A stretch of 64,000 bases of DNA, taken from the NCBI GenBank assembly GCA_964392925.1, contig CAYMRP010000001.1, forward strand, positions 51,945-115,944, written 5' to 3'. Each line of letters opens with the position of its first letter. The first letter of the stretch is position 1. Positions 26,278 to 54,656 of this stretch are shown here, in pieces. The notes under the pieces were generated by a model. That model worked only from the letters and a program-made list of their open reading frames with translations, had not been told where the DNA came from and did not search any database. The stretch comes from an uncultured Gammaproteobacteria bacterium. GTDB taxonomy: Bacteria; Patescibacteriota; Microgenomatia; Daviesbacterales; UBA10151. Made by a program: the position numbers and the translations under genes.

Positions 26278-26281
26278 ATTT

Positions 26282-26911
26282 CTAAGCCTGTTTCTTCTGT
26301 CGTTTTTTAGCTGAATTACTTTGTTTTTCAATATAATCAAAAGAATTTTTAAAATAAAGAGTCATCATATGCAGTATAACAGAGTGAATTCCTTCGACCA
26401 ATTCATAAGCCCCTTTTTCAGATTTAACTAAAACTTTTGCATCCGCTAGTTTATTTAACATTCCACCATCAAATCCTGTAACTCCAATAACTGATGCTTT
26501 AAACTCAAGCGCTAACTCAACCGCTTTTATAACATTAGGAGAATTACCTGATGAAGAAATTGCGATAATTGTATCTCCTTCGCGGATATAATTTCTTAAC
26601 GGGCCTGCAAAAATCATATCAAACCCCACATCATTAGCCCATGCCGTAATCTCTGATTCCGTTGTAGGCAGTCTGATTGCCTGAAATCGTCTGATGTTCT
26701 TATCTAAGTGACCGCTAAATACAGTTTTATTAAAATCAGCCACCCAATGAGTTGCCATAGCCAGTGATCCTCCGTTCCCAAAAACATAAATTCTGCCATC
26801 CCTCTCATAAGTTGCCTGAAGAATATTTATCGCCTTTGCGATTTCTTTAACCGGCAAATTCTCAATAAGTTTTGTGCTCTTTTTAATATATCCGTTAATA
26901 AATTTATCCAT
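26282..26911 (-). CDS. gmhA: Sedoheptulose-7-phosphate isomerase (SIS domain)
   Basis: 209 aa (YVFGNGGSLAMATHWVADF; ISSSGNSPNV). Confidence 0.75.
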   Translation of the reverse strand: MDKFINGYIKKSTKLIENLPVKEIAKAINILQATYERDGRIYVFGNGGSLAMATHWVADFNKTVFSGHLDKNIRRFQAIRLPTTESEITAWANDVGFDMIFAGPLRNYIREGDTIIAISSSGNSPNVIKAVELALEFKASVIGVTGFDGGMLNKLADAKVLVKSEKGAYELVEGIHSVILHMMTLYFKNSFDYIEKQSNSAKKRQKKQA

Positions 26912-26920
26912 ACGAAGGCC

Positions 26921-29016: not shown

Positions 29017-30114
29017 GTGATTAAGAATTATTTATTCCAAGCAGACCTTGTTAGAGCGCTCGCAATCCTGGCTGTCATCGGCATCCATCTCGTTATCCCC
29101 ATAACCCCCAGACCCGATTATTTTGGAGGTACAATCTGGTGGTTAGCATTTCTTTTAAACTGTCTTTTTAGAATAAGTGTTCCTCTATTTGTAATTCTAA
29201 GCGGCTATTTGGTATTAGGAAAACCCTCATCTATTCATGAAAATTTCAAACGTATTACCCAGCGGATTCTAATCCCATTAATCGCTTATTATATTATCTT
29301 CAATATTATTTATGCTTTAATGGCCTGGTTGAGATTTGAGCCCTATGATTACGCCGGAATTTTTCACAATCTCAGTAAAAACACTCACACCAGCTTATAC
29401 TTTCTTGTTGTCCTATTCTTTATTCAATTTTTAAATCCTCTATGGAATTTATTAACCGAACCAAAAAATGAAAAGGTACTAAAGTATACTTGTTACTTCT
29501 TCCTAGGTTTAGGTGCAGCTTCCTATATTTTTTATTATCTGAGTTTAAGAGAAGGGGAGGTCTTTAGCACATTTACCTATTGGATCATGTGGATAGGCTA
29601 TTATTTATACGGTTATCTGGTTAAATTAAAATCAACTATTCTTTCCAAAGCTGAAACTATCGTTTACTCATTAATATTCATCGCCAGTTTTATTTTTACT
29701 GCTTTTTTTGGCTATTTAACACTCTGGTTGTTTCATAATAACGTTAGTGATCTTTTCTATATTGGCGGACAAACTTATGCAGACTCCTATCTCAGCATCA
29801 GTGTGATGTTGATGTCATTAAGCGCTTTTAATTTACTAATGAGAGGTAGCTGGGTTCAAAAATTAGAAACCATCAGCTGGATAAAAAAACCAATCTCTTT
29901 TATTGCCGTATTGAGTTTTGCTCTCTATCTGAATCATCTTTTAGTTATTGATACGTTAAGTAAATTCTTCGGAATAAATCCCGACAGCCCTTCAATGCCA
30001 AGTCTGGCAATTTATCTAATCATCAGTACTATCCTAACCTTCCTAATAACAATACCTCTGGTATTGCTGATTCAAAAAACGCCTTATCTTAGAAAAATAG
30101 TTGGCCTTAAATGA
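29017..30114 (+). CDS. Acyltransferase family 3 membrane protein (probable glycan O-acetyltransferase)
   Basis: 365 aa with about 10 TM segments. The N-terminus (ADLVRALAILAVIGIHL) is typical of Acyl_transf_3. The start is probably GTG. Confidence 0.6.
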   Translation: MIKNYLFQADLVRALAILAVIGIHLVIPITPRPDYFGGTIWWLAFLLNCLFRISVPLFVILSGYLVLGKPSSIHENFKRITQRILIPLIAYYIIFNIIYALMAWLRFEPYDYAGIFHNLSKNTHTSLYFLVVLFFIQFLNPLWNLLTEPKNEKVLKYTCYFFLGLGAASYIFYYLSLREGEVFSTFTYWIMWIGYYLYGYLVKLKSTILSKAETIVYSLIFIASFIFTAFFGYLTLWLFHNNVSDLFYIGGQTYADSYLSISVMLMSLSAFNLLMRGSWVQKLETISWIKKPISFIAVLSFALYLNHLLVIDTLSKFFGINPDSPSMPSLAIYLIISTILTFLITIPLVLLIQKTPYLRKIVGLK

Positions 30115-31661
30115 AAAATTTTTTAGCAATAATTTTTATTATCGCTGTTGCTCTACGCTTTATTTACTTCCCAGATAACGTCTATTTTGGATACGACCAA
30201 GCTAGAGACGCTTATACTTCGCAAGAAATTATCGCTGGTGATATTATAATCAAAGGTCCTTCTGCTTCGTTTGACTCCAATATCTTTCATGGGGCTCTCA
30301 GCTATTATATTCTCGCCCCTTTGTATTATTTCTCTGGTGGTGATCCAACTCTTTTCTCTGTTGTTCTTAGGTTTTACAATGCTCTTGGAGTCATCCTGGT
30401 TTTCCTTATTGCAGCTTTGCTTTTTAATAGAAAAACTGCTCTTATAGCAGCAACTTTGTATGCAGTCTCCTACGAGCAGACTCAGTATGCCCTGTTCCTA
30501 AGCCACCCTTCATTCGCCGTTCTAACTGTTCTCCTGTTTTACTACGGCTGTGTCAAATACTTTTTTCAAAACAATCTAAAAGGTTTAGTTCTCTCAGCAA
30601 TTGGACTTGGATTATCAATTCAATTCCATTTCTCGCTAATTATTCTTGCCTTTGTTTTCTTAGTTATGTTTATTCTATTTAAAATTCCCTGGAATTTAAT
30701 TTCTACCGCTAATACTAAATTCTTTTCATTAGTAAAGAGTAGATTGCCAGATTATTTAAAGTACGCACTGATTTCAATAATCTGTTTTATACTCACTACT
30801 GCCACTTTCATAATCTCCGAGTATAAATACGGCGATTTTTTGAAAATCCTAACCTCCTCAAATCAGAATTCTTTAATAAACGCTAACAATACTATCGAGA
30901 GCGCCATCTTTCATATAACTACAATTACCCATGATAATCTAAACGCATTTCCGGGTAATTTTGCAGTCATTCTAACTTTAGCGCTGTTATCGACAGCCGC
31001 CCTAATCTACAGGAATAATCACAAGAAACAATTAGTATTTTTACTGATTTGGATTATTGGAGGAATTGTTCCTTATCTATTAAGCTATTCCAAAATTTAT
31101 TACTACGGAATTGGCGGCTCAATCGGTTTATTAGTCCTAACCGCTTTTATCATCGACAGGCTGTTTATAAAGCATCGAATCTTGGCAACCGGCCTTTTGG
31201 TTTTAATCATTAGCTCAAATCTCTATTTAATTATCACCCTCAATCAAACTAAATTTAATCAAAATATGATCGTTCAGGAGGGTTTAGTATTGCCAGTAGA
31301 AAAAGAAGTTTTAGATTTTATCTATCAAAGATCAGAGAATCAGCCATTCTCAGTTAATGCTGTAATGATTCCTTATAATGTTAATACAACTTGGGATTAT
31401 TTATTTAACTGGTATGGCTATAAAAAATATGGTCGTCTTCCTGTCTGGGGTGGGGATGCAGCCCCTGGCTATAAAGGCAAGTTGGAAGTAGTAACATCAA
31501 GAACCAATTTGCCAAAACGAAGATTTTTAATAATTGAACCCTCAAGAAATATTCCTTCATACATGATTTCAGGTCTTATCACAGAAGAGAATTATTTTTC
31601 TAAAGTTATCGAAGAAAAAAGCTTTGGTAATATTACTGTCCAAGTGAGAGATGCTATCTAA
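30111..31661 (+). CDS. Polytopic membrane protein, ArnT-like GT-C glycosyltransferase
   Basis: 516 aa. After TM1 the first-loop acidic motif reads YFGYDQARDAYTSQEI. There are at least 11 TM segments and a C-terminal soluble domain. Confidence 0.55.
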   Translation: MKNFLAIIFIIAVALRFIYFPDNVYFGYDQARDAYTSQEIIAGDIIIKGPSASFDSNIFHGALSYYILAPLYYFSGGDPTLFSVVLRFYNALGVILVFLIAALLFNRKTALIAATLYAVSYEQTQYALFLSHPSFAVLTVLLFYYGCVKYFFQNNLKGLVLSAIGLGLSIQFHFSLIILAFVFLVMFILFKIPWNLISTANTKFFSLVKSRLPDYLKYALISIICFILTTATFIISEYKYGDFLKILTSSNQNSLINANNTIESAIFHITTITHDNLNAFPGNFAVILTLALLSTAALIYRNNHKKQLVFLLIWIIGGIVPYLLSYSKIYYYGIGGSIGLLVLTAFIIDRLFIKHRILATGLLVLIISSNLYLIITLNQTKFNQNMIVQEGLVLPVEKEVLDFIYQRSENQPFSVNAVMIPYNVNTTWDYLFNWYGYKKYGRLPVWGGDAAPGYKGKLEVVTSRTNLPKRRFLIIEPSRNIPSYMISGLITEENYFSKVIEEKSFGNITVQVRDAI

Positions 31662-36439: not shown

Positions 36440-37138
36440 TTAATCTCGCACAATTTTTTTATCAGAACATCTCTCTACAAATTTTCCAAAATTTCTATAA
36501 ATCTCGGGGCCATCTTTACCACTCTTTTCAGGGTGAAACTGAACAGCAAAAACATTATTCTTTGAGACAGCACTTACAAACTCAAACCCCTCGTAATTTG
36601 TAGTCGTAGCGATAATATCACGATCCTCAGGAATGCAAAAGTAGGAATGTACAAAATACATATAATCGCTATTTTTAAATCCTTTAAACAATGATGTTTC
36701 CTTTTTGATTTCAATTTTATCCCAGCCAATATGAGGTATTCTCATTCTCTCAGTCGTATCAGGTGTATTGTTAAACTTCTTAACAGATCCCTTAAAAACT
36801 CCCAAACCTTGATGTTCTCCAAATTCCGTACTCGTCTCAAACAACAACTGCATTCCTAAACAGACACCCATAAACGGTTTATTCTTCTGAATGTGATTTT
36901 TTATAGCCTGTGTTAAACCCAGCGAATCCAGATTCTTCATGGCATCCGCAAAGGCCCCAACCCCAGGCAGTATTATGCCATCGGCCTCATCTAGATCCTT
37001 AGGATCAGAAGTTATCTTTACATCGATTCCTACATATTCGCAAGCATGTGCCACTGAAAAAAGATTACTCAATTTAAAATCAATAATCACAATGTTCAAT
37101 TTTCTAAATGTATTACTGTCTTTATTTAAGATCGGCAT
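36440..37138 (-). CDS. HisH-like glutamine amidotransferase (WbuY-type, paired with the amidotransferase above)
   Basis: 232 aa class-I GATase (GVCLGMQLL, catalytic Cys; HVQFHPEKS). Confidence 0.75.
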   Translation of the reverse strand: MPILNKDSNTFRKLNIVIIDFKLSNLFSVAHACEYVGIDVKITSDPKDLDEADGIILPGVGAFADAMKNLDSLGLTQAIKNHIQKNKPFMGVCLGMQLLFETSTEFGEHQGLGVFKGSVKKFNNTPDTTERMRIPHIGWDKIEIKKETSLFKGFKNSDYMYFVHSYFCIPEDRDIIATTTNYEGFEFVSAVSKNNVFAVQFHPEKSGKDGPEIYRNFGKFVERCSDKKIVRD

Positions 37139-37968
37139 GAAACCCCATTTCTTTTTAAATACTTTTTCACTTCCTCAACAGAACTTATTTTTATATTTTT
37201 ATTCGACAACCCGCTTTTTATAAAATTATTACTTCCTTGTTCAAGATCAACATCTCGGCTCATTCTCTCAAGAGCACCATAGTGAAGCATTGAGGCAATA
37301 GCAATTCCACCGACTCCATTAATCAAACAAGCATCCTTTATGTCATCCAATTTTCCTGCACCTCCGTGTACCACGATCGGAACATTCACAGCCCTTGCAA
37401 CGGCTTTGATTAAATCGGTATCAAAACCCTTTCCTGTACCCTCCTTATCAACCGACGTAAGAATTATTTCTCCGGCTCCCAGACTCTCCACCTGTTTTGC
37501 CCATGCTATAACCTCAAGTCCTGTCTTTTCTCTGCCATTATCAGTAAATGCATAATAATTACCATCGCTTTGTTTGATTGCCTCAATCGAAACGACAAGA
37601 TTAGCTGACCCAAAAAGATTGGCCGCTTCAGAAATTAGTTGCGGATTCTTGACAGCAGCAGTATTAATAGAAACTTTATCTGCTCCGGCCCGAAACATAG
37701 CTTGCATATCTTGAATACTTCTAATGCCTCCTCCAACTGCCAGTGGTATGAAGATCTCCTTAGCAGTTCTGGTAATTATTTCCTGCAAACTATTTCTTCC
37801 GTAAAGAGAAGCCACCACATCCATATACAAAAGTTCATCAGCTCCATTATCAAAATAGTATTTTGCATATTGCTCGGGTCGACCTAGAATTCTCAGACCT
37901 TCAAGATGCATACCTTTCACTAAATTCGGCCCTTTAATATCAAGTCTTGGGATAATTCTTATATTCAT
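37126..37968 (-). CDS. HisF-like cyclase subunit (WbuZ-type)
   Basis: 280 aa TIM barrel (RIIPRLDIKGPNLVKG; VGGGIRS; HGGAG). Confidence 0.75.
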   Translation of the reverse strand: MNIRIIPRLDIKGPNLVKGMHLEGLRILGRPEQYAKYYFDNGADELLYMDVVASLYGRNSLQEIITRTAKEIFIPLAVGGGIRSIQDMQAMFRAGADKVSINTAAVKNPQLISEAANLFGSANLVVSIEAIKQSDGNYYAFTDNGREKTGLEVIAWAKQVESLGAGEIILTSVDKEGTGKGFDTDLIKAVARAVNVPIVVHGGAGKLDDIKDACLINGVGGIAIASMLHYGALERMSRDVDLEQGSNNFIKSGLSNKNIKISSVEEVKKYLKRNGVSCRS

Positions 37969-38813
37969 AATGATTCTTTCCGAAGAAAATTCTCAAAAGT
38001 TTTCTTAAGTCCTGATTCCAAAGAATACTCGGGCAAAAATCCGGCAGCTTTTATAATTTTCCCATTATCACCAACAATGGACTTTTTTTCCAACATTTCT
38101 ACTCCTTCAATCCTCTTTAATTTTATTTGTCCTGTCTTTTCTACTTCTGATATTAATTCGTTTATAGAGTATCCGCGCCCGCTGCAAATATTGAATATCT
38201 CGACTTGAAATTCTTGATTATTAATAATCAAGAATTTGAGATACTTCGCCACATCTTCAACAAATATATAATCCCGGATCTGATCTCCACTATTATTTAC
38301 CGAGAACGGTAATTTATTGTAAGTAGCGCTAACTATTTTTTGCACAATGCCTAAATTCTTCACATCACCATAAACATTCCCAATTCTCGCAATAGTTAAT
38401 AGCTTATTTTGTTTCCTAACAAATTGAATTAACAATGTCTCTTCCTTAGCTTTTTGCTTTTCGTAATCTGTAATAGGATTAACTTCTGATTCTTCAGAAT
38501 GCTTTCTTAAACTGTCCTTATATAGGAGTAGGGTAGAGCCAAAAATTATTCTCTTTATATCCTGACTATAATCCTGAATATATTTGATTAATTCTAGATT
38601 TGGCTGAGTCAAAATTATAACTAAATCGCACTGATCTAATAAATTCTCCTTCGAACTAAATTTTATATATTTGACATTTTTAAACCTAAACTTCGGTGAG
38701 CTTTTGTTATAGATAACCCTAACTTTTAATTCTGGAGTTTCCTGCAACAGTTTAACTAGATACCCCCCAATAAATCCATTCCCTCCAAACACCGCTACAT
38801 TTCTTAACGCCAT
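37965..38813 (-). CDS. NAD(P)-dependent sugar reductase/epimerase (short SDR, RmlD-like size)
   Basis: 282 aa (VAVFGGNGFIGGYLV). Confidence 0.55.
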   Translation of the reverse strand: MALRNVAVFGGNGFIGGYLVKLLQETPELKVRVIYNKSSPKFRFKNVKYIKFSSKENLLDQCDLVIILTQPNLELIKYIQDYSQDIKRIIFGSTLLLYKDSLRKHSEESEVNPITDYEKQKAKEETLLIQFVRKQNKLLTIARIGNVYGDVKNLGIVQKIVSATYNKLPFSVNNSGDQIRDYIFVEDVAKYLKFLIINNQEFQVEIFNICSGRGYSINELISEVEKTGQIKLKRIEGVEMLEKKSIVGDNGKIIKAAGFLPEYSLESGLKKTFENFLRKESL

Positions 38814-38816
38814 AAT

Positions 38817-39968
38817 CTAGTATGTTATCACTTTTTGGATCGGCGGCAGCTCGATAGTTTCTAAAATCCTAACCACCTTCTCCGCAGTATTCCCAGCATC
38901 ATACGGATTCTTACCATTATGTACCTTATTTATAAATTTCTTATCAAACAAACATCTTTCAATCGCATTCATAATTTCTTTTTTATCATAATCAACATCA
39001 ATTGTATTAACTCCTTTTTCTCTAAATTGTTCACGCGTTCCGATATTAACTGTTGGTAATTTTAACGAAGGAGCTTCGTGAATCCCGGCTGAAGAATTGC
39101 CCACCAAGACTGACGCAATATTCATTAGTCTCAGAAAATCTTCATAATCAATATGAGGAAAAGAATTAATTCCTGATTTTTCTATATACTTAACAATTCT
39201 GCCTCCTCCAGCATCATTATTTGAATAAACAGCCAAAGCCTCTGTGTCATGTTTCTGATTCATTTCTTTCACAGCATCAATAGTTTCTTTAATTTGCGAC
39301 TCCACTTTATCAACCTCAGTCGTAACCGGGTGCTGCAAAATAATAATTAACGGTTTTTTATAATCAAAGTTATACTTTTTGGCTAAAGATTCTTTTGATG
39401 AATACGAAATATTATGAATGGTATCCAAACTTGGACTTCCAACATTAAATACATATTTAGGATTCTCACCGAGTTTAATAATTCTATTTTTACTTCTCTC
39501 TGTCGCCGCAAAATGAATATGGGCAAACTTTGTCATACCATGTCTAATAACTTCATCAACGGTTCCTGACACTTCACCTCCCTGGATATGAGACACAACA
39601 GTATTAATATGCATTCCTGTAATTGCGGCCGCAAAGTTAGCACCAATATCAAATCCAGAAAAAATAACATCGGGTTTTAATTTCGGGAAAATATCCGCAA
39701 ATGCAACTAAAGCTTTACCCATCCCCCTAACCATAGACGCACCATCATCGTGATCTTTCTCGCTAAATATAGGCACTAACTTATCAATTCTAAATCCATC
39801 CTGAAGGATATTCTTTTTTGTTTCACCATACTTTTTTAATAAATGCATCCCTGTCACAACTAATTGGAGCTCTAACCTCGGAGATTTTTGAACCGCTTTC
39901 ATAATTGGTTTTAAACGGCTGTAATCAGCCCGTCTTTCTGTGATAAATAATATTTTTCTTTTTTTCAT
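38817..39968 (-). CDS. UDP-N-acetylglucosamine 2-epimerase, hydrolysing type (NeuC/LegG family)
   Basis: 383 aa. The N-terminus ILFITERRADYSRLKPI matches the NeuC-type TGTRADxxKLxP region. HIQGGE is also present. Confidence 0.65.
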   Translation of the reverse strand: MKKRKILFITERRADYSRLKPIMKAVQKSPRLELQLVVTGMHLLKKYGETKKNILQDGFRIDKLVPIFSEKDHDDGASMVRGMGKALVAFADIFPKLKPDVIFSGFDIGANFAAAITGMHINTVVSHIQGGEVSGTVDEVIRHGMTKFAHIHFAATERSKNRIIKLGENPKYVFNVGSPSLDTIHNISYSSKESLAKKYNFDYKKPLIIILQHPVTTEVDKVESQIKETIDAVKEMNQKHDTEALAVYSNNDAGGGRIVKYIEKSGINSFPHIDYEDFLRLMNIASVLVGNSSAGIHEAPSLKLPTVNIGTREQFREKGVNTIDVDYDKKEIMNAIERCLFDKKFINKVHNGKNPYDAGNTAEKVVRILETIELPPIQKVITY

Positions 39969-39980
39969 GTTGTGAAAATA

Positions 39981-40829
39981 CTAAAGAGGTTTTTCTAAAA
40001 CAAATCCAACAGCTCTGTTTCCAAATCCTCCAATATTATAATTCACAAACACCTCCGGTAAATTTGCATCATTCTTAACTTTGCGGTTTTCCGGATTGTC
40101 TGTTTTTATAATAATTTCTTGAATAATTTTAAATCCAGATTTCTTAATAAATTTCTCCCATTCAAATAGTCTATATTCATGTTCGCCATTTTCCCTTCTG
40201 GTTAGTTTAATTCCTGCCGGTCTAAAATTATTCTTTAAAAATTCTTCGCTATAAACTATATTTAACATTCTCTCGATCTCTTTATCCGGCGTATCATTAT
40301 TATGAAACTTATCAACAAAGATAAATCTACCTCCCGGTTTTAAAACTCTTAACGCTTCTTTTAAAGTTACAACAGGATTCAGTGAGTGATGCATCGAGAA
40401 CCAGCAAGTTGCAAAATCAAGAGATGAATCTTTGATATTTAAATTATCAAAGTCGCCAATAACTGATACAACTTTATTTCTTTGGGGTTCATCTAGAATC
40501 TTATTAATTACAATTGGTTGACAAAGAGTCACTACACTTTCCACCAACTCTACACTATAAATTTTCTTGACCTGTTCCTTTTTAGCGATAGTAGCGCTTA
40601 TGCATCCAACACCAGATCCTAAGTCGATACCTTTACCATAAAATGATTCCCAGCCTTCCGGGATATGCAAAAAAGTTTTTTTGACATCATCAGGCGAAAT
40701 ATAAACATAGTCCGAAATTAGCGCGTTATAACCTTTTTTGGATAATTTTTGCGCCAGCAACTCATTCCCTTTATATTCCTGATTATCTATATTAAAGCCA
40801 ATTTTCCATCTTTGAATTTTAGACTTCAT
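39981..40829 (-). CDS. Class I SAM-dependent methyltransferase
   Basis: 282 aa (GIDLGSGVGCIS ... LKPGGRFIFVD). Confidence 0.6.
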   Translation of the reverse strand: MKSKIQRWKIGFNIDNQEYKGNELLAQKLSKKGYNALISDYVYISPDDVKKTFLHIPEGWESFYGKGIDLGSGVGCISATIAKKEQVKKIYSVELVESVVTLCQPIVINKILDEPQRNKVVSVIGDFDNLNIKDSSLDFATCWFSMHHSLNPVVTLKEALRVLKPGGRFIFVDKFHNNDTPDKEIERMLNIVYSEEFLKNNFRPAGIKLTRRENGEHEYRLFEWEKFIKKSGFKIIQEIIIKTDNPENRKVKNDANLPEVFVNYNIGGFGNRAVGFVLEKPL

Positions 40830-41878
40830 TTTTTTATCTTCAAATCACTCCATTTTATTTGAACATCATTAGGAATATCTTTTAGAGCCACTTTCCCCAG
40901 AACTTTTTTGAAATCAACAGCTTTTATCTGACCAGTTCCAGGCCTTTTAACCCAAATATTATCTTTAGTGAATTTCTCTCCTTTTTTTATTTCCTTTATC
41001 GAAACAACACAGGAATAAGCAAAATCTATAGTCGGCTGTTCTTCTTTTAGAATCTCCTTTTTACCGCCTAATGATTTATGAATAGCTGCAGACCCAATTA
41101 TTAAATCTTTTAATTCAGCGGGATCAATTGAAATAGCAATATCCGGCCCTGCCCATTTTTTACTAGAAGTAAAATGTTTCTCTATTAAAGAAGCCCCAAG
41201 TGCCACAGCTCCAAAAGAAGTATAGTTGCCGATCGAATGATCCGATAAACCAATTGGAATTCCCGGAAAAGCTTTCATAAGTTCTGCAATCCCTCCCAAT
41301 CTTACTTTTTCATAAGGGGTAGGGTAGAGCGAGGTACAATGAAAAAGCGCCAGCGGAGTATTGTGTTTTTGAATTGTTTTAACCGCAATTTTAATTGAGG
41401 GAATATCATTCATTCCAGTTGAAAGAATAATCGGTTTCCCAAAAGAAGCAATATGATCTATCAACGGATAATTATTGCACTCACCAGATCCTATTTTAAA
41501 CGCCGGCACCTTCATTCTATTTAACCTGTCAGCTGCGGCTCTGGAAAATGGTGATGATAAATATATCATTCCTAAATCTTCTACATACTTTTTTAATTTA
41601 ATTTCCGCTTCCTCCGAGAGAGCGCATCTCTGCATGATTTCATAAATTGATTCTTTAGTATGACCGGGAACTACTTTCTTAGCCTCTGCAATCATCTCAT
41701 CATCTATAACATGAGATTGAAATTTTACACACTCAGCCCCAGCCCTTTTAGCGTCATCAACCATCTTAATAGCCTTTTTAAAACTACCTTCATGATTAAT
41801 ACCGATTTCTGCAATCACAAATGGGGTAAAATCAGGTCCAATTTTTCTTTTAGAAATAGTTATAAATGGTTTTGCCAT
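40826..41878 (-). CDS. N-acylneuraminate-9-phosphate/nonulosonic acid synthase (NeuB/LegI/PseI family with C-terminal SAF domain)
   Basis: 350 aa (PFVIAEIGINHEGSFKKAIKMVDDAKRAGAECVKFQSH; C-terminal SAF-like region). Confidence 0.75.
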   Translation of the reverse strand: MAKPFITISKRKIGPDFTPFVIAEIGINHEGSFKKAIKMVDDAKRAGAECVKFQSHVIDDEMIAEAKKVVPGHTKESIYEIMQRCALSEEAEIKLKKYVEDLGMIYLSSPFSRAAADRLNRMKVPAFKIGSGECNNYPLIDHIASFGKPIILSTGMNDIPSIKIAVKTIQKHNTPLALFHCTSLYPTPYEKVRLGGIAELMKAFPGIPIGLSDHSIGNYTSFGAVALGASLIEKHFTSSKKWAGPDIAISIDPAELKDLIIGSAAIHKSLGGKKEILKEEQPTIDFAYSCVVSIKEIKKGEKFTKDNIWVKRPGTGQIKAVDFKKVLGKVALKDIPNDVQIKWSDLKIKK

Positions 41879-41942
41879 ACAATATTGATAGTTCTAACAT
41901 GTTTAGATTTTCAGTTCAATATGAAAGTGTATAATCTCCCTA

Positions 41943-42890
41943 ATGAAAATTGTATTTTTCGGACTGGGATCAATAGGCCAACGACATGCCCGGCTTCTAA
42001 AAGAAAATTATCAGCATCAGCTTTTCGCTTTCCGTTCCGGAATTAACAAATCCCCAAACAATTTAGGAATAACTGAATTAAATAATTGGCAGCAAATAAA
42101 AAAAATTAACCCCGAAGTGGTTTTTATCACTAACCCGACATCTCTTCATATAAAAACTGCTTTAAGGTGCGCTCATCTTGGAGCCAAGCTTTTCATCGAT
42201 AAACCAATCGGTAGTAGTCTAACAGGACTTGATGAGTTACTAAGTGTTATAGAAAGTAAAAAACTAGTCTCATATGTTGGTTACAATCTCCGTTTTCATC
42301 CGGTAATCATCAATCTGAAAAAATATTTTAAAACCAATAAATTTTTGCATATGCGAATTACTGCGGCTTCATATCTCCCTAATTGGAGACAGGGAACTGA
42401 TCACAAAAAAAGTTATCGTTCAAACAAACAAATGGGTGGGGGGATTATTCTCGATCTGTCACACGAAATTGACTATGCTGATTTCTTGTTGGAAGGCATT
42501 ACAACGATTAGAGGTCAATTTTCAAAAAGAAGTAATTTAACAATTAATGCCGAAGACTATGCTGATATTTTGATAAATTCAAAATTGGGTCCAGCAAACT
42601 TACACATCAATTTTTTAAGTCACCAAAATCAAAGAACAATCGAAATCGATTTTGAAAAAATGACTATCTCAGCCGATCTGATTAATTCAACAATCAAAAA
42701 ATTTAAAAAGGAGAAATTGATTAGTGAGCAAAGTTTTAATGTTGAAAGAGATTCAATTTTTAAGAAACAGCTTGAATATTTCTTTAAAAATATTGATAAT
42801 CCCAAAATGACTAACAATCTCACCGACGCAGCCAGACTTTATAAAAAAATAATCTCATTTAAGAATAGTGAAATTAACAAAAATGGATAA
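41943..42890 (+). CDS. Gfo/Idh/MocA family oxidoreductase
   Basis: 315 aa (IVFFGLGSIGQRHARLL). Confidence 0.6.
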   Translation: MKIVFFGLGSIGQRHARLLKENYQHQLFAFRSGINKSPNNLGITELNNWQQIKKINPEVVFITNPTSLHIKTALRCAHLGAKLFIDKPIGSSLTGLDELLSVIESKKLVSYVGYNLRFHPVIINLKKYFKTNKFLHMRITAASYLPNWRQGTDHKKSYRSNKQMGGGIILDLSHEIDYADFLLEGITTIRGQFSKRSNLTINAEDYADILINSKLGPANLHINFLSHQNQRTIEIDFEKMTISADLINSTIKKFKKEKLISEQSFNVERDSIFKKQLEYFFKNIDNPKMTNNLTDAARLYKKIISFKNSEINKNG

Positions 42891-44391
42891 TATTTTAATA
42901 ACAATTTGCGCCCGGGGTGGCTCAAAAGGTGTAAAAGGTAAAAACATCCGCAATCTAAACGGTAAGCCGCTTATCTACTACACAATTAAACAAGCTTTGG
43001 AATGGGGAAAAGCATCGAAAATCGTAGTCACTACCGATTCAAAAATTATTGCTGAAATAGCAAAATCTTTTGGAGCCGAAGTTCCTTTTCTCCGCCCTAA
43101 GAATCTATCAACCGACACCGCCCCGACACTTCCGGTTCTAACCCATGCCTTACTTGAATCAGAAAGAATATATAAACAAAAATTTGATTTACTTATAGAC
43201 CTGCCCGTAACAGCTCCTGTTAGATCAATTAAAGATATTGAAAATTCCTATAAACTTTTTAAGAAGAAAAATCCCAAAAACCTCGTCACTGTTACACCGT
43301 CTCACAGAAATCCTTACTTTAACATGTTGGAAATAAACAAAAAGGCTAGAGTTGAATATTCCAAACAAGGATCTTTTACCCGCCGCCAGGATGCGCCGCA
43401 AGTTTACGATATGAATAATTCAATCTATATTTATCAAAGTGATTATCTCCGGACTGATGGGATTAAGGATAAAATTTCTGACGACACAATTGCTTATGTG
43501 ATGGATCCAATATCTGCAATTGATATCGATACCGAAACAGACTTTAGAATTCTGGAAGCCTTAGTAAAAGATTCTGTAGTTAAAATTGATAATCAGAATC
43601 CTAAAAATGACTCGACTAAATTCTCTCTTTACGGCAAAGTCGCATTTGTAAATGGTGGAGCCGGATTAATCGGTGAGCAAATCGTTAAACAGTTTACTGA
43701 AGCTGGAGCTAAAGTAATTTTGCTGGATATAAATAAAAAGAAATCCGTTCAAATCGCAGAACAATTAAATGAAAAAGGCGGCGATGTAAATTTTGAAATC
43801 TTTGATATTACTAAACTTGATTCAATAGACAAAACAATCGATGCTTTATATAAAAAATATGGCCGGATAGATATTTGGGTTAATACTTCTTTTCCTAGGA
43901 CAAGTGATTGGGGCAAGAAAATTGAAGATTTTCCACTCGAGTCTTTCCAAAAGAATGTTTCAATGCATCTAAATAGTTATAGCTGGATCAGCCGTAAAGT
44001 TTGTTTAGTTATGAAAAAACAAAAAGGCGGCAGCTTAATTAATTTTGGTTCAATCTACGGAGCTGTTGGCGCAAACTTTAATATTTATGAAAACACAAAA
44101 ATGACGAGCGCCTTTGCTTATTCTGCAATAAAAGGCGGCATAATTAACCTCAGCCGTTATTTGGCCTCATACTTTGGACAATATAATGTTAGAGTCAACA
44201 CAATCTGTCCAGGCGGAATTTTTGATAACCAGGATGAAACATTTGTTAGTAACTATTCTAAACAAACACCATTAAAAAGAATGGGCCAGCCGGAAGAAAT
44301 CGCTCCCGTCGTTTTGTTTCTGGCATCAGAAGCCGGATCGTATGTTACCGGCGCAACCATAATGGTCGATGGGGGATGGACAGCTATATGA
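42868..44391 (+). CDS. Fusion protein: N-terminal CMP-nonulosonic acid synthetase (acylneuraminate cytidylyltransferase family, ~235 aa) joined to a C-terminal short-chain dehydrogenase/reductase (~255 aa)
   Basis: 507 aa. The N-terminal half has NILITICARGGSKGVKGKNIRNLNGKPLIYYTI. The C-terminal half has AFVNGGAGLIGEQI (Rossmann) and YSAIKGG (YxxxK). Confidence 0.7.
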   Translation: MKLTKMDNILITICARGGSKGVKGKNIRNLNGKPLIYYTIKQALEWGKASKIVVTTDSKIIAEIAKSFGAEVPFLRPKNLSTDTAPTLPVLTHALLESERIYKQKFDLLIDLPVTAPVRSIKDIENSYKLFKKKNPKNLVTVTPSHRNPYFNMLEINKKARVEYSKQGSFTRRQDAPQVYDMNNSIYIYQSDYLRTDGIKDKISDDTIAYVMDPISAIDIDTETDFRILEALVKDSVVKIDNQNPKNDSTKFSLYGKVAFVNGGAGLIGEQIVKQFTEAGAKVILLDINKKKSVQIAEQLNEKGGDVNFEIFDITKLDSIDKTIDALYKKYGRIDIWVNTSFPRTSDWGKKIEDFPLESFQKNVSMHLNSYSWISRKVCLVMKKQKGGSLINFGSIYGAVGANFNIYENTKMTSAFAYSAIKGGIINLSRYLASYFGQYNVRVNTICPGGIFDNQDETFVSNYSKQTPLKRMGQPEEIAPVVLFLASEAGSYVTGATIMVDGGWTAI

Positions 44392-45386
44392 GAGATTATA
44401 AAAAAGCATTTCAAAACAAAAGAATATTAGTAACCGGAGGAACCGGCTCAATTGGTACTGAAATCGTCCGTCAACTTTTAAAATACAGTCCAAAACAAAT
44501 TAGAGTTTTCTCCAGAGATGAGCACAAACAACATCTCATGCAAAACGAGCTTGGCAACCCTAAAAACAACAAGATTCTTCGTTTTCTAATAGGAGACATT
44601 CGGGATAAAGAGCGTTTGAATCGGGCCTTCAATGACATAGATATCGTTTTTCACGCCGCCGCTTTAAAACATGTCCCTTTTTGTGAAGCAAATCCTTTTG
44701 AAGCTATGAAAACCAACGTTTTGGGAACCCAAAATGTTATTGAACTAGCAATTGATCACCGAATCGAAAAAATGGTTTCTATCTCAACTGACAAAGCCGT
44801 CAATCCCAGTACTTTTATGGGAATTACCAAATTAATGTCAGAAAGAATGGTCATAGCCGCACCTAACTATTCAGGCCATCCGGAAATAAAATTTGCTGTA
44901 GTCCGTTTCGGTAACGTTATAAATTCCCGTGGTTCTGTAATTCCTTTATGGATCGATCAAATTAAAAAAGGCGGCCCTGTTCTTGTCACCGATAAAACCA
45001 TGGAACGGTTCTTTATGACCATCCCCGATGCTGTAAATCTGGTGTTTTCTGCTGCATCTCAAATGTTAGGCAGCGAGATCTTCGTCCTAAAAATGCAAAA
45101 GTATAAAATCTATGATATCGCCCAGGAATTAATTAAAAAATACGCAGCTGGTGGAAAAGTGAAAATAAAAATAGTAGGAGCCCGAGACCGTGAGAAAAGT
45201 GATGAGTATCTCTTCACTGAAGACGAAGCCAAACTAATGCTGGAATCCGGTCCCTTCCACATCATCCTTCCCAATAAGGACCTCTATCAAAAAAGACAAA
45301 ATAAATATAATTCCAAAATAAAATCCCCCAATCAAACCAGCATCTTCAGCGCCCTAGAGCAGCTTGACCTGACAAACCCACTCTAG
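44376..45386 (+). CDS. UDP-N-acetylglucosamine 4,6-dehydratase (PseB/FnlA/CapD family)
   Basis: 336 aa (RILVTGGTGSIGTEIVRQLL; VFSRDEHKQ; FHAAALKHVP). Confidence 0.7.
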   Translation: MDSYMRDYKKAFQNKRILVTGGTGSIGTEIVRQLLKYSPKQIRVFSRDEHKQHLMQNELGNPKNNKILRFLIGDIRDKERLNRAFNDIDIVFHAAALKHVPFCEANPFEAMKTNVLGTQNVIELAIDHRIEKMVSISTDKAVNPSTFMGITKLMSERMVIAAPNYSGHPEIKFAVVRFGNVINSRGSVIPLWIDQIKKGGPVLVTDKTMERFFMTIPDAVNLVFSAASQMLGSEIFVLKMQKYKIYDIAQELIKKYAAGGKVKIKIVGARDREKSDEYLFTEDEAKLMLESGPFHIILPNKDLYQKRQNKYNSKIKSPNQTSIFSALEQLDLTNPL

Positions 45387-45419
45387 ACAAACAAAAAAAT
45401 CCTGTTAGAATCCCATTTA

Positions 45420-46672
45420 ATGAGTTACAACGACCGAAGAGAAGCTTTTGTAAGTAAGAGAGTAGCAAGTGACCCTACTTTTGAAAAAGTAACACAACTT
45501 TCAATCCCGCAGAATATTTCATTTGATAAATTAGGAGCTTGGGAGGGAATGCTTGCCAGAGAACCTTTTACGACACCTACAATATTGGCATCTAGCCGTG
45601 ACACTGGAGAAACAAAAGTAGTTAGCAAAGCTATGGATGAATTCCATAGACGGGGATGGAAGACTGAGTTTATGGCAGTTGGAGACGGCTTGCCTTTATT
45701 AGAAGAAAGTGGGTACTCGAATAAACGGGGCGGAGAACCAAGGGTGCAGTAGTCACAGGATTTTCAGAACAAGATAATCTTGCAGCAGCAATGCATCTTA
45801 CAAGCCATAAAATTGGGGTAGAACATTATAGGATTGAAGACTTTGATGGAGCTCTAGGGGGTAATATGCAGGACTACTATGGTGCAGACTTTGGTCTGTT
45901 TGTACCCACAAAAGTCTTTGTGGCAAATGAATGGGCTGCGCAGCAGAACAGAAAATACTTTCATGAAAGCACAGTTGTAGTTTCTGGTCCGACTGGCATA
46001 CCAGCCCTTGACCTCGAACAGCAGTCAGCTACAAGAAACAATCTAAGAAGAAAGCTCAATATTCCTTTAGACGCTACAACTGGAGCTTGGTTTGGGCAGG
46101 TAGGCGAAGCTACTGTAAAAGCGCTTGAAATATATGTTAATGCATTAAATGAATCAGGCGCTACTCAGGATTTATTAGTAAGGTTTCACCCCAAATTCAT
46201 AAGAGCAGGTGATGTCCCCGCAGCCCTCCCCATTCTCGATAGATTTAATGGTAGGGTTCATCACGTTTCAGGGATAGATGTACCCGGAGTTAGAAATGAA
46301 AAAGTAGGCAATGTAAATGATGTTATCGACGCTATGAGTTTTGGAGGAAATGAACGCTCAACTACAGCAAATGAGTCCGCAGCACGTAGAAGACTCATGT
46401 TTAGTCTGGATATTGATGGTTTTGATACTCTGTATGGTCAGGATAAAAGTTTTGCTGTTGGGGCAATAGACAGAGGAGCCAGTCCTGTGATTAGAAGGCC
46501 GTATCAAGCAGCTGGCGTTATTAGAGAAGCCCTTTATGACAGAGCAGCCAGAGAAAAGTACTTTGGCCAAATGCAAGAATTTGAATCTGACGGGCTTGGG
46601 GCTTTTAATATTGTAAATGTCGTAGAAAAAGATATCTTCTTAGAAAGACATAAAATGCAGCCATTAAAGTAA
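45420..46672 (+). pseudogene. Compositionally atypical gene for a ~415-aa protein of unknown function, split by a 1-nt frameshift at a G4 run near position 45727 into ORFs 45420-45752 and 45791-46672
   Basis: The frame of the second ORF stays open upstream to 45725 (TGRRTKGAVVTGFSEQDNLAAAMHL), so it overlaps the end of the first ORF. Inserting one nucleotide at CGGGG joins the two frames. Local GC (~45%) and Ala/Gly/Arg-rich, Lys/Ile-poor composition differ from the flanking genes. The two parts may still be expressed, and a sequencing error is possible. Confidence 0.4.
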
Positions 46673-46701
46673 TTTAGATATTCTGTTATATTTGTTATTG
46701 A

Positions 46702-47076
46702 ATGTCAGATTCATTAATTAACCCAAACCCTTCTGCAATTTTCTACGAAAACCAAAACCTCTATGCTTGCCTCGCAGATTATCCGTTAAGCAAAGGCCAC
46801 TCTCTTGTCGTTTGGAAAAAACCAATCCCTGATCTCCATCTCCTAAACCCCAAAGAATATGAATCCCTCATGGAAATAGTTGATAAAGTTCGAAACGCCC
46901 TAATGAAAACTCTGAAAGTCGAAAAAGTTTACTTGATGTACATGGACGAAATAAAACATGTCCATTGGCACCTAATCCCGCGTTACAACAAACTTGGATT
47001 TAACATTCTTAAACATTCACCAAAAAAACTAGAGAATTATGATTTAGCAAAAAAGCTCAAACTTTCAATTACCTGA
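46702..47076 (+). CDS. HIT (histidine triad) family nucleotide hydrolase/transferase
   Basis: 124 aa with the HIT motif HVHWHLIPR. Confidence 0.65.
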   Translation: MSDSLINPNPSAIFYENQNLYACLADYPLSKGHSLVVWKKPIPDLHLLNPKEYESLMEIVDKVRNALMKTLKVEKVYLMYMDEIKHVHWHLIPRYNKLGFNILKHSPKKLENYDLAKKLKLSIT

Positions 47077-47108
47077 TAACTAAATTATACTTTCTTCCAG
47101 GCTAAATT

Positions 47109-48593
47109 ATGGTCAAAGAAAAAAACCTTGGAGAAAAAATTCTTAAAGGCAGTGTTATAGTCCTGATTCTCACTTTCTTAGGTTCGATTTTTGCTTACCT
47201 TATTAGGATAATCTTCTCCCGTTCTCTCTCCATCGAGAGTTACGGTTTATTCTACGCGGTCTTAGGACTTTTTAACGTCTTAACTACGTATATTGATTTA
47301 GGATATGGGTATTCAGTAGTTTATTTACTACCTAAATACATCAGGGCAAAAAAGTATAAAGAAGCCTGGAATGTTTTTATTCACGGCCAAACAGTTTCAT
47401 TAACAATTACAATTCTAGTTTCAATATTACTAATAATCTTCGCTCCATTTCTATCAAATAATTATTTTAAAGTCCCAGGCTCTGAAGCTCTCATCTATAT
47501 TTTTTGTTTATACCTAATTTCATACGTTATCTTAAATGGTCTAATCCAAATATTTGCCAGTCTCCAGCAGGCTTCTTATTTCGCTTCAATCACCGTTGTG
47601 AAGTGGTTCCTAACGCTTATTATTTCGTTAATATTCATTGGAGCCGGAATCCAAAATGTCTTGGTATTTGCCGCTGCGTTGGCAATAGCCCATCTTCTAA
47701 CTGCTGTCAGTTACACCTATTTGCTAATCATTAAGCATCCATTGTTAATCAAAAATAAGATCACTATTGAAAAAAATACCTACAAAAAAATGACAGCCTT
47801 CGCTTTACCAGCAATACTTGAGACAGTTGTCTATTCGGCTGTAATTGCCACTGATACTTTCTTATTAACCCTTTTTAGGGGAGTCAGGGATGTTGGTATC
47901 TACAATATAATTTATCCGCTTGCCTCGATTCCTGTGGTTTTATTCAACCCAATTAACGGCTTAATATTACCCCTGGTATCTCACCTCATGGAAGGGGATA
48001 AAACCCGGTTAACTTATTTAATGGAAAAAATTCTTGAGGTCATTCCTTTTATCAGCTTCTACTTCGTGCTCTTTATCGTTATCTTCCCTTCGGCAATAGT
48101 CAAATTAATTTTTGGTGATCAATGGAACGGGATGGTTGGATTACCGCTCAGTATATTATCAATGGGCGCGATTCCTATATTAATGTCTGCTATTTTGGGA
48201 GCAATATTACTCGGAACAGGCAGAGTTAAAGAAAAGCTGAAAGCTGCCTCAGTAATCGCCCTTCTCGGAGTTTCGATGAACACATTCTTAATCTGGACAT
48301 ACGGCGTTTTAGGAGCTGTTATAACTTCCACATTTGTCGCCACAACTCTCTCAATACTGTTTGTTATCCTTATCAAACAAACAATCAACTTTAAGATTCC
48401 TTTTTTGTTTTACACAAAACTTCTGATCTTTGGGGTAGTATTATTCGCAGCTGCCAGATTGCTTTCTCTCAATCCGCTTTCATGGACTTTAATAATATTC
48501 TACGGGTTATGCTACTCAGGTCTATATTTTGGCTTAGGCTGGTTATTAAAAGTTTATGATAAAGACTTAATAAAAATGTTGATTAAAAGATAA
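47109..48593 (+). CDS. wzx: Oligosaccharide/polysaccharide flippase, Wzx-like (MOP superfamily)
   Basis: 494 aa with about 12-14 TM segments. The N-terminal region (GSVIVLILTFLGSIFAYLIRIIFSRSLSIESYGLFYAVLGLF) is typical of polysaccharide biosynthesis flippases. Confidence 0.6.
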   Translation: MVKEKNLGEKILKGSVIVLILTFLGSIFAYLIRIIFSRSLSIESYGLFYAVLGLFNVLTTYIDLGYGYSVVYLLPKYIRAKKYKEAWNVFIHGQTVSLTITILVSILLIIFAPFLSNNYFKVPGSEALIYIFCLYLISYVILNGLIQIFASLQQASYFASITVVKWFLTLIISLIFIGAGIQNVLVFAAALAIAHLLTAVSYTYLLIIKHPLLIKNKITIEKNTYKKMTAFALPAILETVVYSAVIATDTFLLTLFRGVRDVGIYNIIYPLASIPVVLFNPINGLILPLVSHLMEGDKTRLTYLMEKILEVIPFISFYFVLFIVIFPSAIVKLIFGDQWNGMVGLPLSILSMGAIPILMSAILGAILLGTGRVKEKLKAASVIALLGVSMNTFLIWTYGVLGAVITSTFVATTLSILFVILIKQTINFKIPFLFYTKLLIFGVVLFAAARLLSLNPLSWTLIIFYGLCYSGLYFGLGWLLKVYDKDLIKMLIKR

Positions 48594-53140: not shown

Positions 53141-53875
53141 TCACTTAGTTAATTTGTGATATTCCTCAAATACCTTAGAAGTCTCTCCATCGATAACTAT
53201 TTTCGATTCATTTATTAGAATTGCTCTATCACAAAAACTCTTTATCGAGTGCTCATCATGACTTACAAATACGATCGTTTTCTCCCCCGATGCTTTTATC
53301 TCTTTTAATCTCTTCATGCATTTCTCCTGAAATGCAACATCCCCAACAGCTAAAACTTCATCAATCAAAAGTATCGGCGCATTAGTATTTATTGCAATCG
53401 AAAACCCCAGCCTCATATACATCCCGCTTGAATATTTTTTAACCGGGGTGTGAATAAATTCCTTAAGTTCACTAAATTCTATAATCTCCTCAACTTTCGC
53501 TTCAATCTCTTTTTTATGCATCCCAAGAATTGCAGCATTCAAAAAAATATTTTCATATCCGGATAATTCATAATGAAACCCTGCTCCTAATTCTATTAAA
53601 GGGGCTACTTTTCCTTCAATATTAACTTTCCCCGAAGTGGGAAAAGTAACTCCGGCTATTAGTTTCAAAAGTGTAGATTTACCAGATCCATTTTTACCAA
53701 CAACTCCAACAGTTTCCCCTTGTGCAATTTCAAAACTCATATTTGATAATGCTGTAAACTTTTTTGCCCAAGGCTTACCAGTCAATAAATTAGGTAAAAG
53801 TTCTTTAAAAGTTCTGTCATCCTGCAGATAAAAACTCTTAGTTACATTTTTAAATGATATAGTCGTGTTTCCCAT
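53141..53875 (-). CDS. wzt: ABC transporter ATP-binding protein, polysaccharide export type (Wzt/TagH/KpsT-like, no C-terminal carbohydrate-binding domain)
   Basis: Walker A (GKNGSGKST), ABC signature (YSSGMYMRLGFSIA), Walker B (ILLIDE) and H-loop (VSHD) are all present. I trimmed the start to Met49 (MGNTTISF) at 53875 so that it abuts the wzm stop at 53877. The track ORF extends to 54019. Confidence 0.75.
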   Translation of the reverse strand: MGNTTISFKNVTKSFYLQDDRTFKELLPNLLTGKPWAKKFTALSNMSFEIAQGETVGVVGKNGSGKSTLLKLIAGVTFPTSGKVNIEGKVAPLIELGAGFHYELSGYENIFLNAAILGMHKKEIEAKVEEIIEFSELKEFIHTPVKKYSSGMYMRLGFSIAINTNAPILLIDEVLAVGDVAFQEKCMKRLKEIKASGEKTIVFVSHDEHSIKSFCDRAILINESKIVIDGETSKVFEEYHKLTK

Positions 53876-53876
53876 A

Positions 53877-54656
53877 TTAAACCAAATCTGCAAAAACTCT
53901 CTCCGATCTCTTAAAAGTAATAAACCCAACAACAAAAATAACCAGTGAAAACACAAATGACCAGGCAATAGTCCCCAAATCAAAGCTTTGCCCAAAAAGT
54001 GCCGATCTATAACCTTCAATTATGCCGACCATCGGATTTAACTTATAAATTCCAATCCACTCCGGCGGCACCATTGACAGCGGATAAACCACTGGCGAAA
54101 CATACATCCAAAGCATCAACACTAAATTAGCTAAATATTGAATATCCCGGTAGAACAAATTTGCGGTAGAAAAAATAAATCCGATTCCGGTTATCAACAT
54201 AATTTGAATCCCCAGCAGTGGAATAATCCAAAAAGCACTTGGAGAAATAGAAACCTGATAAAAAATCATAAATACTCCTAAAACAATTGATGCAAAAAAT
54301 AAATCGATTAACTTAGCTGTCACAATCGAGTAAATAAAAACTTCTCTTGGGAAAGCGACCTTTTTCAAAAGTTCCCGATTATCAACCAAAGCTAAAGTTG
54401 AATTAGCAACCACTGTTTGAAGATATATCCAAGGCAATAGTCCTATGAATAAAAATACCGGATAGGGGATACTTGTCGGAAACCTGAAAACAACTGAGAA
54501 AACAAAAGAATAAACTAGTAACTGAAGTAAAGGATTCAAAATAACCCAGGCATATCCAATAATCGACTGCTTATACCTGGCTTTAATTTCTCTCTGGATG
54601 AGTTGATACAACAAATACTTATAAGAAGTAAACGGTAAAAGAAAAGACTTCAGCAT
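53877..54656 (-). CDS. wzm: ABC-2 type polysaccharide exporter permease (Wzm/TagG-like)
   Basis: 259 aa with 6 TM segments. The N-terminal LIQREIKARYKQSIIGYAWVILNPLLQ signature is typical of ABC-2 permeases. Confidence 0.7.
   Translation of the reverse strand: MLKSFLLPFTSYKYLLYQLIQREIKARYKQSIIGYAWVILNPLLQLLVYSFVFSVVFRFPTSIPYPVFLFIGLLPWIYLQTVVANSTLALVDNRELLKKVAFPREVFIYSIVTAKLIDLFFASIVLGVFMIFYQVSISPSAFWIIPLLGIQIMLITGIGFIFSTANLFYRDIQYLANLVLMLWMYVSPVVYPLSMVPPEWIGIYKLNPMVGIIEGYRSALFGQSFDLGTIAWSFVFSLVIFVVGFITFKRSERVFADLV

Follow-up and report, generated by a model that had tools for sequence, protein, structure and literature searches.

A 25-nt deletion splits the gene for a predicted GT-B enzyme in a nonulosonic acid cluster of a probable candidate-phyla-radiation bacterium

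Results

Genomic context

The window, that is, the whole 64-kb stretch of DNA that was analysed, carries a set of nonulosonic acid (NulO) biosynthesis genes at 36440-44391, recognised by Pfam and NCBIfam matches. This set contains a HisH/HisF-like amidotransferase pair, an SDR, a NeuC-like Epimerase_2 protein (38817-39968, E 3.5e-73), a methyltransferase, NeuB, a GFO/IDH/MocA oxidoreductase and a cytidylyltransferase-SDR fusion. Next on the forward strand is a PseB/FnlA-like UDP-GlcNAc 4,6-dehydratase (44376-45386; Pfam Polysacc_synt_2, 2.8e-104; TIGR03589 PseB at 322 bits, below the cut-off). Between it and a gene for a HIT-family protein with the triad HVHWHLIP (46702-47076, forward strand; Pfam HIT, 5.8e-16) lie the two open reading frames that are the subject of this work, which we refer to jointly as X. 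A Wzx-like polysaccharide flippase (47109-48593, forward strand; Pfam Polysacc_synt, 2e-21) is the next gene. The window as a whole is a large glycan island, which in addition holds an ABC transporter, tandem GT-C (PMT_2) paralogues, genes of the GT2 and GT4 families and a heptose-nucleotide pathway.

The order cytidylyltransferase-SDR fusion, PseB-like dehydratase, X, HIT protein and flippase was found to be the same in four homologous loci (L001, L002, L009 and L010), and in L008 a 33%-identical homologue of X occupies the same slot. The dehydratase precedes X in L001, L002, L008, L009, L016, L024 and L028. A pattern independent of X was also used to find the HIT gene in other loci. Wherever the HIT protein shares 77% or more identity with that of the window (L016, L019, L021 and L024), X lies directly upstream. 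Among the GTDB representative genomes, the same pattern matches MAGs of Microgenomates, Daviesbacteria and Patescibacteria; their HIT proteins show 57-68% identity, and their HIT genes have no adjacent X. A search of the GTDB representative genomes with alignment A2 returned no relative, and our literature search returned no paper linking nonulosonic acid with histidine triad proteins or with Patescibacteria. The related contigs are 0.5-1.1 Mb long, with a GC content of about 35%. Going by HIT relatives at 67% identity in Microgenomates and Daviesbacteria MAGs, the window probably belongs to a Microgenomates-like member of the Patescibacteria, and so to the candidate phyla radiation.

Two reading frames, one gene

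The first of the two frames, ORF1, extends from 45420 to 45752 and encodes 110 aa. ORF2 encodes 293 aa in the +2 frame of the same forward strand, from an ATG at 45791, corresponding to the conserved M133, to 46672. These coordinates and frames agree with the original prediction, as does the observation that the second frame stays open upstream to 45725 and thus overlaps the end of ORF1; a TAA codon at 45722-45724 precedes it.

A homologue search of 5.8 billion proteins returned only five relatives. Four are uninterrupted proteins, 425-433 aa in length and with 52-84% identity to X, and the fifth is exactly ORF2. The 90% cluster of ORF2 includes P0043, an intact protein of 425 aa that is 95% identical to the two pieces of X in the window. 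Single-ORF orthologues of 425-433 aa spanning both frames are P0043, P0001, P0002, P0003 and P0005. The N-terminal part of X (45420-45746, forward strand; 109 codons, M1 to V109) is in the ancestral frame and aligns residue for residue with intact P0043, P0001, P0002 and P0003 through the motif GGEPRV. At that point the protein alignment passes from frame 0 to the +2 frame, which is homologous from 45746 onwards, beginning with AVVTGFSEQ. Read in the +2 frame from 45746, the DNA encodes a sequence (AVVTGFSEQDNLAAAM...) that can be aligned to the homologues over 308 codons, A118 to K425, which are followed by the stop codon (45746-46672, forward strand). What remains of ORF1 beyond the homologous part is an out-of-frame tail at 45747-45752 on the same strand, namely CAG (Q) and the stop codon TAG.

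Together, ORF1 and ORF2 are what is left of a single gene of 425 codons. The proposal that a frameshift divides a single gene is thus borne out by intact single-ORF homologues at 52-95% identity, and the case named as its refutation, that the two frames are normally separate genes, does not apply, given that the orthologues are single uninterrupted ORFs.

The 25-nt deletion

DNA alignments with five independent intact loci (L009, L010, L001, L002 and L004) all show a single gap in the window, with 25 nt missing after position 45744. The junction is at 45744-45745 on the forward strand, with a placement that is ambiguous by 1-2 nt, and the loss comprises codons L110 to H117 (P0001 numbering) plus one base. 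The eight residues absent between the two halves of X read LIDMRRGH in the closest homologues and include the conserved I111 and G116.

The original prediction had placed the lesion at a G4 tract, the CGGGG run at 45726-45730 (forward strand). The deletion, as defined by the five intact DNAs, lies 14 nt downstream of this run; homology in frame 0 continues for 16 nt past it, and the DNA alignments have no gap there. It is correct that a one-base insertion in the run would fuse the two ORFs into an open frame of 417 codons, but the resulting protein would read RRTKG where the family has GEPRV. A slipped-strand origin of the deletion was considered and dropped, because the AAGAG direct repeat, whose copies are 21 nt apart in L009, predicts an in-frame loss of 21 nt rather than the 25 nt observed.

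Family and fold of X

Pfam scans (E up to 1) and NCBIfam scans of fused X and of both ORFs gave no match, including to PseG, NeuC and WecB, and a PDB search with the single sequence of X returned noise only. When 1.84 billion cluster representatives were searched exhaustively with HMMER, 36 matched at E up to 1e-3. Weak matches to Pfam Glyphos_transf were found in 25 of the 37 relatives (best E 8.5e-10) and to Epimerase_2 in 16. The family profile, searched against PDB sequences, matched solved UDP-GlcNAc 2-epimerases, TagF, TarL and Cps3D at E values of about 2e-7 to 9e-7, and hhalign assigned a probability of 97% to the relationship between the X family and the NeuC-like protein of the same cluster.

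An AlphaFold2 model of P0001 reached a pLDDT of 91.2 and a pTM of 0.89 with the 37-sequence alignment on which it rests; a run with four sequences gave a pLDDT of 41.8. The model adopts a GT-B fold, with two Rossmann-like domains and an interdomain cleft, and its top Foldseek matches are epimerases, at E of about 1e-10. In the alignment of the 37 sequences, G198, H265 and P266 are invariant and D61, G63, D149, G152, P171, P200, G234 and S322 nearly so (P0001 numbering).

The weak Pfam matches, the profile and hhalign scores, the modelled fold and the conserved residues together identify X as a GT-B family of its own, whose sister families are the epimerases and TagF. Judging from the model, X is a nucleotide-sugar-dependent enzyme of an undescribed family related to the UDP-GlcNAc 2-epimerases and the TagF-type transferases. 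The glycosyltransferase or sugar-modifying role that had been guessed from the position of the gene fits the GT-B fold of this model. The family is unnamed, has neither a Pfam nor an NCBIfam model and counts about 36 representatives in 1.84 billion clusters. It sits in the NulO clusters of probable candidate-phyla-radiation bacteria, where it is paired with a HIT protein.

Discussion

X as a putative NulO transferase

We put at roughly 60% the probability of the explanation as a whole, namely that the two ORFs are one gene, that this gene was broken by the 25-nt deletion and that it encoded a resident GT-B enzyme of glycan synthesis. With regard to the reaction catalysed, we tentatively propose, at somewhat less than even odds, that X is the transferase of the CMP-activated NulO made by the cluster. 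Intact X would move the activated NulO to the growing glycan. The nearly invariant Asp149 of the N-terminal domain may act as the base, and His265-Pro266 and Ser322 of the C-terminal domain may hold the CMP phosphate, as in GT-B sialyltransferases. With codons 110-117 and one base removed by the deletion, translation now stops at 45750-45752, and under this scheme the loss of X would result in an altered surface glycan. The donor and acceptor chemistry in this scheme is inferred.

Several features are consistent with such a role. The HP motif, together with an upstream acidic pair and a glycine, is a hallmark of GT-B sialyltransferases, and in the NmB polysialyltransferase the HP motif binds CMP-Neu5Ac and lies 125 residues downstream of the acidic residue (E153 to H278) (PMC2169525). 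Like the GT-B sialyl- and NulO transferases (CAZy GT38, GT52 and GT80), X has an invariant HP motif; the acidic pair and glycine that lie 117 residues upstream of it have the form E-D-x-x-G. The Pse/Leg transferases of Tannerella are described as combining a GT-B or TagB superfamily domain with the same motifs (PMC5420450). The weak Glyphos_transf matches of 25 of the 37 relatives also count in favour of a transferase. Between loci with biosynthetic neighbours at 74-85% identity, the identity of X falls to about 30%; this divergence, far above that of the neighbours, is the pattern expected of a linkage-specific transferase, and high allelic diversity is a further trait that X shares with the GT-B sialyl- and NulO transferases. 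The Tannerella forsythia Pse/Leg transferases are reportedly encoded inside the NulO locus, as X is. No other recognisable NulO transferase was found within the 64-kb window.

Other observations fit this role less well. The nearest structures to the model are epimerases, and X showed no sequence similarity or closest-structure similarity to known GT-B sialyl- or NulO transferases, including no sequence match to solved sialyltransferases. Its acidic motif, E148-D149-x-x-G152, has two extra residues before the glycine in comparison with the D/E-D/E-G of those enzymes. The distant relatives P0006, P0009 and P0010 lie outside NulO clusters, beside LysM/TPR or phosphatase genes. A simple transferase model does not account for the constant pairing with the HIT protein, and if X were the only NulO transferase, its loss would leave the intact biosynthesis genes useless. 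NulO transferases are poorly known, and a new family of them would help to read the surface glycans of uncultured bacteria.

X as an epimerase or a polyol-phosphate transferase

An alternative that we regard as unlikely, and yet as the most serious of those considered, is that X is a nucleotide-sugar 2-epimerase or hydrolase, an analogue of PseG, NeuC or LegG acting on the product of the dehydratase or on a second sugar, with the HIT protein processing the nucleotide that is released or required. X directly follows the 4,6-dehydratase gene, nucleotides are the substrates of HIT enzymes, and the hhalign probability of 97% points to NeuC-like proteins. X also resembles the UDP-GlcNAc 2-epimerase family (PF02350, which includes the hydrolysing NeuC and LegG) in the loop after the first strand (RDTGE, aligned with GTRPE), the GxPxxD linker, the DGxAxxR motif at the C-terminal end and a His located on strand two of the C-terminal domain. 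In contrast to the members of that family, X falls below the Pfam and NCBIfam reporting thresholds, PseG and NeuC models included, with a sequence identity of about 10%. Among the acid/base residues of the E. coli UDP-GlcNAc 2-epimerase, D95, E117 and E131, only E117 has an equivalent that the alignments show conserved as an acid in X (D149), one of the three acidic catalytic positions. The positions of X aligned to the epimerase GDT and PEE motifs are not conserved as acids among the 37 sequences, in an alignment at about 10% identity. Moreover, the cluster already contains a canonical NeuC-like Epimerase_2, and X varies between loci far more than the pathway enzymes do, the core enzymes remaining 74-85% identical.

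It is rather improbable that X is a phosphotransferase of the TagF/TagB type, which would use a CDP-activated donor to attach a polyol- or sugar-phosphate to the glycan. With TagF, TagB and TarL (PF04464), X shares the GT-B fold and C-terminal motifs that align with those of TagF and TarL: GxPRxD (GxPxxD), R/K-x-H(P) and the S-S/T turn that binds phosphate. The weak Glyphos_transf matches of 25 of the 37 relatives point the same way, but X itself has no Pfam match. Unlike TagF, X has no N-terminal extension and consists of a single domain of about 390-425 aa, and the residues invariant in its family include no His in the N-terminal domain matching H444, the catalytic histidine of TagF, the profile alignment starting after H444. 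No genes for the synthesis of CDP-glycerol or CDP-ribitol were seen beside X.

Nature and consequences of the lesion

Since the source is probably a metagenome-assembled genome and intact alleles of the same species are known (L009, L010 and L019), the 25-nt gap might be an artefact of assembly or consensus calling, X being intact in the organism. We consider this very improbable. A homopolymer sequencing error, one of the explanations put forward in the original prediction, does not account for a loss of 25 nt, which is too long for such an error. In addition, a separately built Logan contig (L011, SRR12762304, 1473 nt), which may stem from the same reads as the NCBI assembly, is 100% identical to the window from 44660 to 46132 and carries the identical junction. 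L009, a 542-kb wastewater contig, is 96.7% identical to the window over the 20.5 kb that they share. Across this distance the 25-nt deletion is the sole indel within a gene, and the only other indel is one intergenic base at 46700, which argues that the assembly of the window is not generally prone to indels.

The allele carried by this strain is most likely null, as judged from the premature stop one codon beyond the junction, at 45750-45752, and from the late position of the next possible start. The +2 frame contains no ATG, GTG or TTG between 45725 and 45791, and with M133 as the next start codon, neither the strand formed by residues 118-121 nor the conserved GFSxxDN motif can be produced. 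In the AlphaFold2 model of P0001, residues 107-113 are helical and the strand at 118-121 belongs to the N-terminal Rossmann domain; the deleted codons 110-117 correspond to the end of the helix and the loop leading into the strand. The event also looks recent. The dN/dS of X relative to L009 is 0.12, within the range of the neighbouring genes (0.01-0.17), and amino-acid changes polarised with outgroups number 8 on the window's side and 5 on that of L009. Relaxed selection on X was considered on these figures, and they gave no clear signal of it.

Even less probable than an artefact is a split gene that still works, either as two polypeptides that assemble or through a -1 shift within 45725-45752 that gives a protein of 417 residues. 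The dN/dS is low in both halves (0.085 and 0.13), the family-invariant residues outside the deleted stretch are all kept, and X is frameshifted in two other lineages too. However, the 28-nt overlap (45725-45752) has no X_XXY_YYZ slippery heptamer and no A/T run, and the orthologues are single ORFs in frame. The eight lost codons hold two conserved residues, I111 and G116, and ORF2, which can start only at M133, lacks strand 118-121 and GFSxxDN. The three frameshifts occur at different codons (about 55, 109 and 286) through different lesions, which argues against a conserved recoding site. The idea of a gene that depends on frameshifting is thereby contradicted, and the frameshift is most probably a real but ordinary strain-specific allele, presumably one of loss of function.

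Composition and origin of X

The X locus has a GC content of 0.421, compared with a window mean of 0.350 (sd 0.020, in 1253-nt windows), and is the GC maximum of the 64-kb window; the dehydratase region at 44000-45400 also reaches about 0.40. Ala, Gly, Arg and Val make up 0.29-0.35 of the residues in the X ORFs (0.21 +/- 0.04 in the genes of the window), and Lys, Ile and Asn 0.12-0.15 (0.23 +/- 0.04). The original prediction was accurate on these points: GC is not uniform in quantitative analysis, and the protein, rich in Ala, Gly, Arg and Val and poor in Lys, Ile and Asn, is an outlier relative to the other 53 ORFs. It was also right that no repeat signature surrounds the locus, where our searches returned neither notable flanking repeats nor any Rfam match or RNA element.

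The excess GC is confined to codon positions 1 and 2 (GC1 0.50-0.57, GC2 0.39-0.46). GC3 is 0.333 in ORF1 and 0.303 in ORF2, compared with 0.310 +/- 0.026 for the genes of the window, and the synonymous codons of X, scored by their likelihood under the usage of the other genes, rank 19th of 53 genes. Every homologue examined has a GC content of 0.38-0.43 with high GC1 and GC2 and low GC3, and an Ala, Gly, Arg and Val fraction of 0.32-0.35. The GC1/GC2-high, GC3-low signature is present in L001, L002, L003, L004, L005, L008 and L009, and the composition signature extends to members that are only about 30% identical and reside in other hosts. The high GC of X is therefore attributed to a protein rich in Ala, Gly, Arg and Val rather than to a foreign origin, and a rise confined to codon positions 1 and 2 is no evidence for horizontal transfer.

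Least plausible of all is the view of X as a compositionally foreign, recently acquired gene on its way to becoming a pseudogene: the GC maximum, the outlying amino-acid composition and a slot shared by allelic types less than 35% identical, which could reflect an old replacement by recombination, speak for it, but GC3 and synonymous codon choice are native, the composition is the same across all family members and hosts, X is found at the same position in relatives at 72% to 97% nucleotide identity, and mobility genes and flanking repeats are absent. X is a long-standing, vertically conserved member of the cluster. The frameshift itself is ordinary, and its analysis corrects a plausible reading of the locus, X being neither foreign nor slipped at a homopolymer.

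Recurrent disruption and allelic types

X has been frameshifted independently in three lineages. Besides the window, these are L016, whose X lacks 1 nt at about codon 55 when compared with the intact, 97.9% identical L024, and the group of L028, L029 and L030, from three JGI samples, which have in common a 1-nt deletion just before IFSTEG that splits X into 301 and 85 aa. Three allelic types of X, less than 35% identical to each other, occupy the same slot, and X is the most diverged segment in both strain pairs (the window and L009; L016 and L024). These disruptions suggest that strains tolerate the loss of X or are even favoured by it, which we offer as a lead rather than a result; the ascertainment of frameshifts is biased, because the window was chosen for its frameshift and P0027 was found by a search with X. 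Inactivation in three lineages, together with a slot that harbours three allelic types, points to strain-to-strain variation of the surface glycan.

A broader and more speculative proposal, which we think unlikely to hold in full, is that X founds a new family of NulO transferases of Patescibacteria, at the level of a new CAZy family, with at least three highly diverged alleles in one slot and repeated switching off by frameshift in natural populations. If true, it would mean population-level variation of the cell-surface glycan in small, host-attached bacteria. An apparent gap of 15 residues in the X of L019 corresponds to a run of N in the scaffold and is not of biological origin.

Variation of X in other lineages

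The slot between the PseB-like dehydratase gene and the HIT gene was found to hold three allelic types of X, the gene that is split into two ORFs in the window. These types, located at window 45420-46672, L008:6594-7775 and L024:4906-6048, share less than 35% amino acid identity and have lengths of 425, 393 and approximately 388 aa, respectively. Across the three loci, the dehydratase and HIT genes on either side of X show 74-85% identity.

In two lineages besides that of the window, X homologues occupying the dehydratase-X-HIT slot are broken by independent frameshifts. The homologue at L016:1916-3078 carries a 1-nt deletion at approximately codon 55, and X is intact in L024, which is 97.9% identical to L016. 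In the second lineage, a 1-nt deletion lies immediately 5' of the IFSTEG motif at L028:6001-7163; it is common to L028, L029 and L030, which originate from three JGI samples. The 4.7-kb contig constituting L016 (CAYNRM010000101.1) is labelled 'uncultured Gammaproteobacteria'. As it is syntenic with the Patescibacteria-like locus of the window, with flanking proteins 77-82% identical, this contig was probably placed in the wrong bin.

Compared with L009, a relative with an intact X, the window is far more diverged in the 3' portion of X and in HIT than in the remaining locus, dS being 0.55 for HIT and 0.04-0.23 elsewhere. The interval between HIT and the flippase gene contains an additional ORF of 206 aa in L009 and L010, and one of 281 aa in L001. 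The region at window 46200-47090 has the appearance of a variable slot or of a recombination boundary.

Nonulosonic acid cluster and other genes of the window

Six ORFs of 541-582 aa are arranged in tandem at window 483-10415. The scan covered the first and the last of these, and both are membrane glycosyltransferases of the PMT_2 type (GT-C); two more PMT_2 copies are located at 16221-18050 and 30111-31661. A nucleotide-heptose-type pathway adjoining a C-methyltransferase lies upstream (24035-28938), comprising a SIS isomerase, a GHMP kinase, a nucleotidyltransferase-HAD phosphatase fusion and SDR epimerases/dehydratases.

Within the nonulosonic acid cluster, a single 507-aa ORF (42868-44391) encodes a PseF/LegF-like cytidylyltransferase fused to a PtmA-like short-chain dehydrogenase, a fusion also kept in L001, L002 and L009. 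Despite the presence of the PseB-like dehydratase in this cluster, the ORFs scanned in window 1-64000, which were all but four of the six tandem ORFs (2158-8797) and a short ORF at 14110-14472, included no aminotransferase of the DegT/PseC/LegC type. A DegT gene is present in the related loci L001 and L008.

An ABC-transporter ATPase ORF (53141-54019), listed as starting at a TTG codon, and the permease gene (53877-54656) overlap by 143 nt. Given that the ATPase orthologue in L009 measures 244 aa, the true start is probably a codon further downstream.
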